The position numbers and the translations under genes were made by a program. Below, in pieces: positions 3,635 to 6,580 of a stretch of 64,000 nucleotides of DNA. The notes below the pieces were generated by a model, which searched no databases, was not told the origin of the DNA, and was given only the letters and a program-made list of their open reading frames with translations. Location of the stretch: the NCBI GenBank assembly GCA_000004695.1, contig CM000152.2, positions 4,640,001-4,704,000 of the forward strand, given 5' to 3'. The DNA comes from Dictyostelium discoideum (taxonomy: Eukaryota). Position 1 is the stretch's first letter. The number at the start of each line of letters is the position of its first letter.

Positions 3635-6580
3635 ATGAAAATATTATATTCATTATTATTAATATCAAGTATAATTTTAAATACTGTATTAAATATTTCA
3701 TCACAAGTATATGATCAACGTATTTTGGCATTAAAAGGAAAATGTTATTTAGATTCAAATAAAAATGCATTGTATGATGAAGGTGAACCAGGATTTGGAA
3801 ATGTTGAAATTTCTTTAGGAAATGCAACTGATTATAAGGGAAATAAATATCCAATACGTTATTCATCTGCTGATGGTACATTTATATATGATGGATTAAC
3901 TCAACGTACAACTTATGAATTTACATTTACCAATCCAAAAGATTATTACTTTGAAACCTATGAAAAGACATTGGCTTGTCCACCAGGTGTACCATGTATT
4001 CGTCCAACGGTTTCAGCTGATAATTTGGCAGCAGATCTTTTAGTTGCAAATACCTTTGCCTATAACATTCCATTGATTAAACAAGTTGGTGTTTCATCAG
4101 GCTCATCTATACTTACAGTTAGAATTAGTGTTGATTTGGGTTATGTTGAGCAAACTCAACCACCAACTCAACCACCTACTCAACCACCTACTCAACCACC
4201 AACACCTCCACCATTTACTGGTAGTGCCGTCGCTGGTTTATTATTTACCGATATCAATGGTAATGGAATTTTTGATGGAAGAGATGTTTGGACATCAAAT
4301 GTATCGGTTGGATTATATAATTTCAATGATAAAACCAGAGCACTCGATGTAAATGGTAATGTTATTTCATCAATTACTACCGATGCTAATGGTAGATATG
4401 CATTTGAAAATGTTGCCAATGGTGTTTATTGTTTATGGATGGAAGGTACAAAATATTTCAATCCAGGTTGCGTTGGTAGAATTGAAATCAACTCTGCAAC
4501 AATGCCAAAATCAGTTGCATCAGATGGTGTTCAATCACCAACCATTTTAAGAGCTGGTTCATTTAGTCTTTTCCTTACTGGTAATTCTGGATATGGTGGT
4601 TATGCATACAATGACATAGACCTCAATGGATATTTGAGTAGTAGAGATCAAGGTATCGCTGGTATTATTGTCAAGATTTACCTACCAGTTTATAATTTCC
4701 TCTTTGGAACCGTTACAACCGATTCAAATGGTAGATGGTCATTCAGTGGTTTACAACCAGGTTTCCCAGTTAGAATTGAGTTTGTAATTCCAAATGATTT
4801 CACTTCAACTGGTGCAAATTTGGTAAATTTCGTAACAGTTGGTCAATCTATTGACTTAAGCATTGGTTTGATTCCAAAATCTTTAACTGGTGTAAATGCA
4901 GGTCCAAGTAATCCAAAATCATTTGTTACCACCTGTTTTGTTAAAGGTTCATACAATGGTAAATATAAAGATGAGCCAACAGTTGTTGAAATTAACAAAG
5001 ATGCACAAGGTAAAGCATATGCTCAACAATCAGCTGACTATATGAAGGTATTGGCAAGTCATAAAGATACCGGTTCAGTTCATGGTGTTGCTTTTAATCC
5101 AGATAATGGTGATAAGTTTGTATCATCTTATCATAAGACAAACTCTGATTTTGGTCCATCAGGTAGTTGTGCAATTTATAAACTTTCAAGTGGTATCATT
5201 ACAACACATGTTAACTTTAATGATGTATTTGGTAAATCCTATTGTGGTGGTTATGCACATTACTTTGATTTCCGTGAAATATCAACTGCTGGTCCATTAG
5301 TTGGTAAAGCAAGTCTTGGTCAAATGACCTATTACAACAAGAAACTCTATGTAACCAATCTTGGAAAGAATGAAATTTTGGTTGTACCAATTTATCAAAA
5401 TCCAAATGCAACCAATGTTGAAAGAATTCCAGTTGCAAATCCAGGTTGTAGTAGTGGTGATGATTGGCACATTTTCCCAGTTACAGTATTCCAAGGCGAG
5501 CTATTCACAGGTGGTGTTTGTTCTGGTGAAAAAGGTAGTAGATTATCAACCTATATTCTAAAGTATAATCCAAATAGTAAATCATTTTCAACTGTTCTCT
5601 TCTATACACTCGGTTATGCAAGAGGTTGTCGTTATCTTGATTCATTTGGAAGTTGTGTATCAAGTGTTTGGCAAAAATGGTCAAATAATGATTCTCCTCA
5701 AGCATTGTTATCAACTATTATTTTCGATGTTAGTGGTCATCTCATTATGGCATACAAAGATCGTTCAGGTGATATTTCAGCAGTTGTTTCAGCACCAGAA
5801 CTTTTGATTGCATGTTTAGGTACTGATGGTCTTTTCTATTTGGAGAGTGGAGGTAAATGTGGTAGTCTTGTTGGTGCCGGAGTTGATCAAAAATCACTCA
5901 CTGGTCTTAGATATGGTCCAGGTAATGGTAATTTCTTTGATAATCATAAAACAGGTCTTCATGACTATACCAATGCTTTTGGTGCAACTAAAGGTGGTCG
6001 TGATATTATTGTTACAACTGGTTTCGATTACTATGAAGCATTTGAAGGTTCAATTCGTTGGTATAATGCAACCTCTGGTAAACAACTAAAAGGTTACTCT
6101 TTATATATAACCTCTTCAAATGGTCGTACCCCATCTCCAACCTTTGGTAAACAAAATGGTCTTGGTGATATTACTTCAGTGTATGATTCTTCTCTTCCAC
6201 AATATCGTGTTGGTAGAGTTTGGCTTGATATAAATGGTAATGGTATTCAAGATGCTGGTGAACCTGGTATTTCAGGAATCACAGTATTCTTAATCTATGG
6301 TCAACAATCAACTCCAACAAGTCAAACTGTATCCGATTCAAATGGTTATTTCAAATTTGAAGTTGATTTCAGTTCAAATTATTATTGTGTAATTCCTGTT
6401 GCATTCTTCCAAGCTGGTTCTTCCATTACAATGAGAAATGCTGATCCAACTCATCCAAATACAAATAGTGATGCTTTCTTATCAACTGTTGATAATGTTT
6501 ATGTCACTTCTTTTACTTCTTCTGATGCTGGTGGTTATTATTTTAATGGTTGTTCATTTGGTATTATTCCAAAAAAATAA
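3635..6580 (+). CDS. Secreted 981-aa protein with a signal peptide, several CnaB/SdrD-B-like Ig-fold repeats, a (QPPT)n linker and a central beta-propeller-like region (colossin-like / adhesin-like)
   Basis: This is a single uninterrupted ORF. The N-terminal signal peptide is MKILYSLLLISSIILNTVLNISSQ. SdrD-B/CnaB-type motifs recur at least four times: DxNxNGxxDxGEPGxxxV, as in CYLDSNKNALYDEGEPGFGNVEISL, FTDINGNGIFDGRDVW, YNDIDLNGYLSSRDQGIAGIIVKIYL and WLDINGNGIQDAGEPGISGITVFL. Each is followed by TDxNGxYxF plus a G-Y-C/V strand (TTDANGRYAFENVANGVYCL, SDSNGYFKFEV..YYCVIP). A QPPTQPPTQPPTQPPTPPP linker is present. The central roughly 450 aa (GSVHGVAFNPDNGDKFVSS..., SGDISAVVSAPELLIACLGTDGLFYLESGG) look like a YVTN-type beta-propeller. 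Confidence 0.75.
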   Translation: MKILYSLLLISSIILNTVLNISSQVYDQRILALKGKCYLDSNKNALYDEGEPGFGNVEISLGNATDYKGNKYPIRYSSADGTFIYDGLTQRTTYEFTFTNPKDYYFETYEKTLACPPGVPCIRPTVSADNLAADLLVANTFAYNIPLIKQVGVSSGSSILTVRISVDLGYVEQTQPPTQPPTQPPTQPPTPPPFTGSAVAGLLFTDINGNGIFDGRDVWTSNVSVGLYNFNDKTRALDVNGNVISSITTDANGRYAFENVANGVYCLWMEGTKYFNPGCVGRIEINSATMPKSVASDGVQSPTILRAGSFSLFLTGNSGYGGYAYNDIDLNGYLSSRDQGIAGIIVKIYLPVYNFLFGTVTTDSNGRWSFSGLQPGFPVRIEFVIPNDFTSTGANLVNFVTVGQSIDLSIGLIPKSLTGVNAGPSNPKSFVTTCFVKGSYNGKYKDEPTVVEINKDAQGKAYAQQSADYMKVLASHKDTGSVHGVAFNPDNGDKFVSSYHKTNSDFGPSGSCAIYKLSSGIITTHVNFNDVFGKSYCGGYAHYFDFREISTAGPLVGKASLGQMTYYNKKLYVTNLGKNEILVVPIYQNPNATNVERIPVANPGCSSGDDWHIFPVTVFQGELFTGGVCSGEKGSRLSTYILKYNPNSKSFSTVLFYTLGYARGCRYLDSFGSCVSSVWQKWSNNDSPQALLSTIIFDVSGHLIMAYKDRSGDISAVVSAPELLIACLGTDGLFYLESGGKCGSLVGAGVDQKSLTGLRYGPGNGNFFDNHKTGLHDYTNAFGATKGGRDIIVTTGFDYYEAFEGSIRWYNATSGKQLKGYSLYITSSNGRTPSPTFGKQNGLGDITSVYDSSLPQYRVGRVWLDINGNGIQDAGEPGISGITVFLIYGQQSTPTSQTVSDSNGYFKFEVDFSSNYYCVIPVAFFQAGSSITMRNADPTHPNTNSDAFLSTVDNVYVTSFTSSDAGGYYFNGCSFGIIPKK

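Follow-up and report, generated by a model that had tools for sequence, protein, structure and literature searches.

A gene of Dictyostelium discoideum, located at 3635..6580 on the forward strand of a 64,000-nucleotide stretch of contig CM000152.2 (GenBank assembly GCA_000004695.1, positions 4,640,001 to 4,704,000; the whole stretch is called the window here), encodes a colossin-related protein with SdrD_B domains of bacterial derivation. Proteins of this kind are already known, and the textbook candidates for transfer from bacteria to amoebae already include the stalk domains of the Dictyostelium colossins, so that the gene extends an existing story. It adds to that story an entire three-part bacterial architecture, beyond a single repeat, that appears to have been transferred and kept. 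Its head comes from a very large, mostly bacterial family of six-bladed propellers that is unmodelled in Pfam and NCBIfam and uncharacterised, and fixed amoebal changes at the most conserved polar positions of this family offer concrete residues for testing. On balance we favour the view that this is a resident dictyostelid gene of bacterial cassette origin, encoding a secreted soluble protein in which Ca2+-stiffened stalks would carry a ligand-binding propeller head.

The gene is one intact, intronless open reading frame (ORF) of 981 codons plus a stop codon, and the coordinates and length given in an earlier reading of the letters alone (the sequence-only reading) are borne out. From its N-terminus, the protein of 981 amino acids (aa) runs from a signal peptide through a first SdrD_B domain, a (TQPP)n linker, a pair of SdrD_B domains, and a module of 430 aa to a last SdrD_B domain:

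3635..3700, forward strand: predicted signal peptide, aa 1-22 (sole Kyte-Doolittle hydrophobic window; low-confidence N-terminal helix in the structure model).
3722..4141, forward strand: SdrD_B-like domain 1 with a C-terminal extension, aa 30-169 (Pfam, custom profile, structure model).
4142..4219, forward strand: Pro/Thr-rich linker (TQPP)4TPPP, aa 170-195 (sequence; model confidence, pLDDT, below 50 at aa 170-194).
4220..4585, forward strand: SdrD_B domain 2, aa 196-317 (Pfam, custom profile, pLDDT 83-93, alignment with SdrD chain 10ps_A).
4586..4894, forward strand: SdrD_B domain 3 with a degenerate Ca loop, aa 318-420 (Pfam, custom profile, structure model).
4895..6193, forward strand: predicted six-bladed beta-propeller module, aa 421-853 (no Pfam or NCBIfam model).
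6194..6577, forward strand: SdrD_B domain 4 with the canonical VWLDINGNGIQDAGEPG loop, aa 854-981 (Pfam, custom profile, SdrD chain alignment, structure model).

Two elements of the sequence-only reading, the signal peptide and the Pro/Thr linker, hold: aa 1-22 are the only hydrophobic stretch of the protein by Kyte-Doolittle analysis, which makes the peptide a prediction, and the linker contains TQPPTQPPTQPPTQPPTPPP at aa 174-193. The protein has 16 cysteines and six NxS/T sequons, while a search of it for an LPXTG motif and a Ser-Asp run ((SD)n) found neither. Judged from these sequence features, it would be secreted, either soluble or matrix-associated, and would lack a membrane anchor.

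The repeats are recognised by independent profiles. The Pfam-A model PF17210 (SdrD_B), whose gathering score is 29.7, matches the protein in four stretches at 136 bits (E=8e-40). Scored as single segments, aa 38-109, 203-269, 321-395, and 861-951 reach 27.1, 37.3, 44.5, and 57.1 bits, respectively; three of the four exceed the gathering score alone and repeat 1 lies just below it. A custom hidden Markov model (HMM) was built from 860 repeat instances of the collected homologues and run on the six-frame translation of the whole window. It returned repeats 1-4 with domain E-values of 1.3e-8, 4.7e-18, 7.5e-13, and 1.7e-21, and nothing else significant in the window. A solved chain of Staphylococcus aureus SdrD (10ps_A) also matches in sequence (E=8.4e-12), with domains 2 and 4 aligning. 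With PF17210 far above threshold and the custom HMM in agreement, the earlier count of at least four SdrD_B-type repeats stands. The CnaB identity proposed alongside it does not, as PF05738 gave no match at E<=1 for the full-length protein or at E<=10 for the segments; by profile comparison, the stalk domains are of the SdrD_B and not the Cna_B type. Repeats 1, 2, and 4 show a recognisable loop of the DxNxNGxxDxxE type (D40-S-N-K-N-A-L-Y-D-E-G-E in repeat 1); the loop is degenerate in repeat 3 (DIDLNGYLSSRD), where one Asp is replaced by Ser. This alignment covers the four window repeats and compares one loop motif, against three Ca2+ per B domain in SdrD and SdrG. Each staphylococcal B domain binds three Ca2+ ions, and a force of more than 2 nN is needed to unfold it (PMC6232131).

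An AlphaFold2 model of the full-length protein reached a predicted local distance difference test (pLDDT) score of 81.8 and a predicted template modelling (pTM) score of 0.58, in keeping with a beads-on-a-string layout. It contains a helix at aa 2-21, a disordered segment at aa 170-194, the propeller at aa 427-850, and beta-only domains at aa 30-165, 197-312, 318-414, and 856-978 with pLDDT values of about 80-93. Ig-like stalk domains are thus present in the predicted structure, as four all-beta sandwich domains flanking the propeller.

The central module (aa 421-850) has no Pfam family even at E<=10 and no NCBIfam model. AlphaFold2 applied to a 33-sequence alignment of the module produced a model with a mean pLDDT of 90.0, a pTM of 0.92, and about 24 strands. 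Its structural matches were headed by nidogen (score 23.1; 245 residues, 2.7 A) and the YWTD domains of LRP4, LRP6, and LDLR (20.5-22.7), followed by NHL domains (18.4-20.0), SGL gluconolactonases (19.4-19.8), and TolB and kelch propellers (about 19.5). Foldseek returned designed six-blade SAKe proteins, BtuG, CylK, nidogen, and kelch, at about 10% identity. On the strength of the model, the module is a six-bladed beta-propeller of the YWTD/NHL/SGL structural class, into which about 180 residues are inserted. Its closing blade appears to be formed by the first three strands together with the last one (aa 843-850). The sequence-only reading had proposed a YVTN-type propeller for this region. 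The propeller part survives as a predicted fold, but the YVTN part reduces to the resemblance of one blade: in a profile search of the PDB, the YVTN propeller 1L0Q, from a Methanosarcina mazei S-layer protein, matched at E=5.7e-5 over profile positions 129-186, around an 'LYVTNL' motif, while the best structural matches are six-bladed. Membership of the seven-bladed YVTN class finds no backing in Pfam, where no YVTN, NHL, or lactonase model matches, nor do the NCBIfam models include a matching repeat.

The same module is widespread in bacteria, in the same surroundings. Residues 158-620 of a Chloroflexaceae protein, flanked by SdrD_B on both sides, can be aligned with it over its whole length (E=1e-25), and a second SdrD_B-flanked bacterial protein aligns more weakly. 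In the bacterial members annotated by source or by Pfam, the module adjoins SdrD_B stalks. Its boundaries are conserved in bacteria, with a start of the form '..EYCxxNPxLxTxCF' and an end 'FGKANGLGDxELLC' that is followed directly by SdrD_B; bacterial proteins consisting of the module only likewise lack a Pfam or NCBIfam match. With a profile of eight modules as query, a set of 1.84 billion cluster representatives yielded 4,447 proteins at E<=1e-3, of which 3,205 remained at E<=1e-30. Many of these proteins are giants, as long as 6,215 aa, in which the module occurs two to six times, and those matches that carry a name are bacterial. A scan of one genome per prokaryotic species, made with a bacterial-only alignment, confirmed at least 549 loci that match an 822-aa Chloroflexota protein of SdrD_B-propeller-SdrD_B layout (P0160) over about its full length. 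They belong to Chloroflexota, Acidobacteriota, Bacteroidota, Actinomycetota, Verrucomicrobiota, and other phyla, and the Chloroflexota among the loci listed include Anaerolineae, Caldilineae, Chloroflexia, Herpetosiphon, Roseiflexus, and Ktedonobacteria. At the Chloroflexota loci L003, L004, and L005 (positions 11432-18469), the compact gene for the 822-aa protein lies directly upstream of a gene for a 3,005-aa SdrD_B protein. Adjacent SdrD_B genes of this kind suggest local families of such surface proteins in these Chloroflexota.

Only four eukaryotic sequences occur in the profile results, and all are amoebal or amoeba-like. Below them, identity to the window protein is at most 29%, and the nearest bacterium reaches only about 28%; the lower matches that were looked up are mostly unnamed, the names found being an 'SdrD B-like domain' protein, a 'MYXO-CTERM domain-containing protein', and proteins from Caldilineaceae metagenome-assembled genomes. 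The nearest relative is an intronless 981-aa protein of Polysphondylium violaceum (KAF2070397.1; P0001) with 52% identity over aa 26-977; its propeller is 60.7% identical to that of the window protein, against 42-49% for the B domains, and all 16 cysteines are conserved. The Heterostelium album protein named 'colossin C' (XP_020432927.1, 1,341 aa) shares 56% identity in the propeller and 48% over aa 184-980 of the window protein, which makes the link to the colossins, proposed from the motif array, a direct one (48% identity over 800 aa). A third relative is a EukProt model (P0132, 2,813 aa) with 53% identity in the propeller and 43% over aa 31-978. No close Dictyostelium sequence or group-4 orthologue was found in the collections searched, and a collection of 15 billion proteins has no exact match to the window protein. 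By sequence comparison the window protein can thus be placed as a colossin-related dictyostelid protein with bacterial-type Ig-like stalks. The H. album gene lies in a different neighbourhood from the window gene, adjoining a leucine-rich repeat (LRR) gene: on GL291012.1 (L085), a small LRR_6 gene stands just upstream of 'colossin C', the genes occupying 7421-8960 and 10001-14180. In the EukProt model, an N-terminal LRR region is joined to the colossin-like part. Because an LRR_6 gene adjoins colossin C in H. album, P0132 is probably a fused model of two neighbouring genes, although it is possibly a true fusion in that species.

Horizontal transfer, which the sequence-only reading had raised as possible, is well supported by these distributions. 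The cassette and its junction motifs are widespread in bacteria, and the four eukaryotic sequences group in a single clade, ten nodes inside the midpoint root, in a neighbour-joining (NJ) tree calculated from 228 copies of the module. A bacterial source could also be apparent for a trivial reason, if the assembly contained contaminating bacterial DNA or a recent insertion without function; all of the closest relatives outside the amoebae are bacterial, and the ORF, at 34% GC, exceeds the window mean of 21%. The gene is nevertheless well embedded in its host. Its GC content at third codon positions (GC3) is 0.142, within the range of neighbouring host genes, and the raised overall GC (34-37% inside the ORF, 11-22% in the DNA on either side) sits in codon positions 1 and 2, where it follows from amino-acid composition; the flanks are amoebal intergenic DNA of about 12% GC. 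Gene order is conserved in P. violaceum, where an upstream gene, a SCO1/SenC gene, the 981-aa gene, and a COG3 gene follow each other as in the window, both copies of the 981-aa gene being intronless. Two neighbours outside the gene itself serve as synteny anchors:

1347..2129, reverse strand: SCO1/SenC-like upstream neighbour (tblastx with P. violaceum locus L002, whose gene has this Pfam label).
8328..11210, reverse strand: COG3-like downstream neighbour (tblastx against the P. violaceum locus).

Since GC3 matches the host, the gene is an old resident. Synteny, GC3, the flanks, and an orthologue that is likewise 981 aa long with all 16 cysteines, together with an identity of only about 28% to the nearest bacterium, effectively refute contamination, to which we attach a practically negligible probability. 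Transfer in the other direction, from an architecture ancestral in eukaryotes or Amoebozoa, or assembly within amoebae by shuffling of colossin repeats with an endogenous propeller, is very improbable as well. The expanded dictyostelid Cna_B/colossin D-type families (PMC4334915) would have supplied raw material for shuffling, but the module occurs in thousands of clusters, the named ones bacterial and spread over many phyla, against four amoebal sequences; the exact junctions (the EYC..NP start, and the FGK.NGLGD end followed by SdrD_B) exist in bacteria, and the amoebal clade is nested, not basal. On account of the bacterial spread, the nested clade, the synteny, and the host GC3, the sequence comparisons thus favour acquisition of the whole SdrD_B-propeller-SdrD_B cassette from bacteria, once and long ago, followed by full amelioration, a scenario that we regard as well supported.

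The amoebal modules have diverged from the bacterial ones at defined positions. Among positions conserved to at least 80% in 224 non-amoebal modules, the four amoebal sequences keep D545, N575, W679, W682, D709-R710, E737, D798, K839, and D845. In all four of them the replacements R502T/A, D563Q/E, R612H, P613I, D694T/S, G721P, E766N/Q, E778Y, and E847T/A are found. Two cysteines are lost together, one from the N-terminal 'EYC' motif and one from the C-terminal end ('LLC', now Y850), and because both flank the presumed closing strands, they can reasonably be taken as a disulfide clasp of the closing blade in bacteria with which the amoebae have dispensed. Several of the lost acids belong to the inner-strand motifs GLGD, SDIEFD, HDETS, and GLGDLE. 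Such acidic inner-strand positions line the central metal site in propellers of the SGL/DFPase type. The loss of the Cys pair and of several acids suggests an altered ligand or metal site in the amoebal clade.

Replacement of residues that are near-invariant in bacteria, together with the degenerate Ca loop of repeat 3, might also be expected of a decaying relic without current function. We consider this highly improbable, since the 2.9-kb ORF is intact in two species that are only 52% identical, the propeller (60.7%) is better conserved than the spacers (42-49%), and all cysteines are kept. The replacements are common to all four amoebal sequences and are therefore fixed changes, not random decay. 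The pseudogene reading was rejected on the intact ORF in two species, the conserved cysteines, and the shared replacements.

The main rival to a binding or matrix function is enzymatic. The propeller could be catalytic, as a Ca2+-dependent lactonase, hydrolase, or lyase of the SGL/DFPase/PON/CylK type in a secreted enzyme, with the SdrD_B domains as tether or spacer. CylK is among the Foldseek matches, and the bacterial family conserves Asp and Glu on the inner strands of several blades (GLGD, SDIEFD, HDETS, GLGDLE). There is also a weak profile match (E=0.94) to 3FGB, which we take to be a lactonase-type propeller. However, the best structural matches, YWTD and NHL propellers, are non-enzymatic, Pfam offers no SGL or lactonase match at E<=10, and five conserved acids are replaced in the amoebal clade (D563Q, D694T, E766N, E778Y, E847T). 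The bacterial module is moreover repeated within giant repeat proteins, a pattern that is more adhesin-like. An enzyme thus seems unlikely, for the amoebal protein, as the alternative to a binding or matrix role.

In the scenario that we favour, a dictyostelid ancestor would have acquired the bacterial surface-protein cassette once. Host codon usage and a eukaryotic signal peptide would have been gained later, and the gene would have persisted as part of a small colossin-related family. By analogy with the staphylococcal B domains, the SdrD_B domains may act as Ca2+-stiffened, mechanically strong Ig-like spacers. The propeller, as the most conserved part, would be the ligand-binding head, and its partner is expected to be extracellular, for example a matrix or slime-sheath polymer or a bacterial surface. 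The likely role is thus that of a secreted, Ca2+-stiffened binding or matrix protein. The adhesive, sugar-binding, or metal-binding role suggested in the sequence-only reading is likewise a putative one. Three points weigh against this account. The gene neighbourhoods in Longispora and Chloroflexota contain no conserved partner genes and give no functional clue. The tree is a crude distance (NJ) tree, midpoint-rooted and without bootstrap, in which most of the 224 non-amoebal sequences are taxon-unlabelled. The conserved residues were placed in the central tunnel through a strand assignment from DSSP strings.

A bolder proposal, which we regard as doubtful, concerns the module itself. In an unmodelled family of at least 4,400 clusters (at 50% identity) without a solved structure, the amoebae would have captured one copy and, by losing the clasp and most of the inner-strand acids, turned it into a new extracellular recognition head. 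Were this true, the head might recognise, for example, bacterial prey or biofilm polymers, or serve slime-sheath assembly, and through the amoebal protein the function of a major 'dark' surface module of bacteria would become approachable in a tractable eukaryote. In any case, a single compact copy in a genetically tractable amoeba could offer a practical route to the binding or activity of the module.

A further claim of the sequence-only reading, that a decayed fragment with the same GxYC strand motif lies at 43.6 kb, is not statistically supported. At 43,619-43,895 on the forward strand, frames 1 and 2 contain 'TDVDGEYNFND', 'NDGKYCLTF', and 'VWVNKNDNGK*ESDEP', interrupted by a frameshift and a stop, and ordered as if one SdrD_B repeat ended there and another began. 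Neither tblastn (E=48) nor the six-frame HMM scan (E=0.17) rises above noise, and in the scan an ORF at 7781-8011 that is unrelated has the better value (E=0.096). Only when the frameshift is repaired by hand does the translation score 19.6 bits (E=0.0011), which is still short of the Pfam cut-off. Strings resembling DxNxNG arise easily by chance because the genome is rich in Asn codons.

The wider setting of the window is dictyostelid, with its 21% GC, an FNIP-repeat gene, a retroelement fragment beside a tRNA gene, and the synteny with P. violaceum. Seven FNIP repeats (PF05725, E=1e-40) together with long tracts of poly-Asn occur in a very long ORF (about 1,600-1,700 aa) at 37795-42879 on the reverse strand; genes of this type are typical of dictyostelids. 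A tRNA-Met gene (20155-20226, reverse strand) lies about 47 bp from a 443-codon ORF (20273-21601, forward strand) with unusually high GC3 (0.37) and no Pfam match; this ORF has a CxxCG...H...C knuckle and resembles the C-terminal part of ORF2 of a non-LTR (long terminal repeat) retrotransposon. Together the two (20155-21601) resemble what we take to be a tRNA-gene-targeted retroelement of the Dictyostelium TRE type. Other ORFs, of an ordinary housekeeping or secreted-enzyme kind, encode a papain-family cysteine protease with an I29 propeptide (61249-62721, reverse strand; GC3 0.32), a protein with an alpha-amylase catalytic domain (31223-32365, reverse strand; GC3 0.24), and a 2-oxoacid dehydrogenase E2 with lipoyl, E3-binding, and catalytic domains (49016-50305, forward strand). 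As a guess, the raised GC3 of the protease and amylase ORFs may reflect high expression.

Several known systems resemble the window protein in part. With the staphylococcal proteins SdrC, SdrD, SdrE, and SdrG it has in common the B-domain type (PF17210) and the DxNxNGxxD motif of the putative Ca loop. The staphylococcal MSCRAMM features, that is the N2-N3 A region, the Ser-Asp repeat, and LPXTG, are absent from it and a propeller head is present instead; the family models score far below their cut-offs (NF012181, MSCRAMM_SdrD, 72 bits against 2500; NF000535, 49 against 1700). The propellers of nidogen, of the LDLR/LRP YWTD domains, and of the NHL proteins are only 11-15% identical to the module, which has about 180 extra residues, and neither the LDL-receptor class B nor the NHL Pfam model matches the window protein. 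Bacterial SdrD B-like proteins (P0160, P0005, and P0022 from Longispora) have the cassette as in the window protein, with a propeller of about 450 aa that aligns at 24-31% identity. These bacterial versions keep the N- and C-terminal Cys pair and the five acidic residues, whereas the amoebal clade lacks both; many are giant with two to six propellers, in contrast to the compact window protein, and some have sorting tags, such as the one named 'MYXO-CTERM domain-containing protein' at its source. None of the bacterial SdrD_B-propeller-SdrD_B proteins has a characterised function, and the literature on SdrD B-like proteins with beta-propellers and on colossin function offered nothing useful beyond comparative genomics. 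Among dictyostelid proteins, a 'colossin D / Cna B-type' family has 5, 33, 22, and 7 members in four species (PMC4334915), and colossin A, under Cna_B, is a listed candidate for bacterial transfer into Dictyostelium (PMC3188802). The colossins and the window protein are both dictyostelid and both have bacterial-type Ig-like stalk domains, but colossin A is a slug protein with Cna_B repeats, and the window protein has no Cna_B match. Compared with H. album colossin C, the window protein is compact (981 aa), intronless, and set in another genomic neighbourhood.

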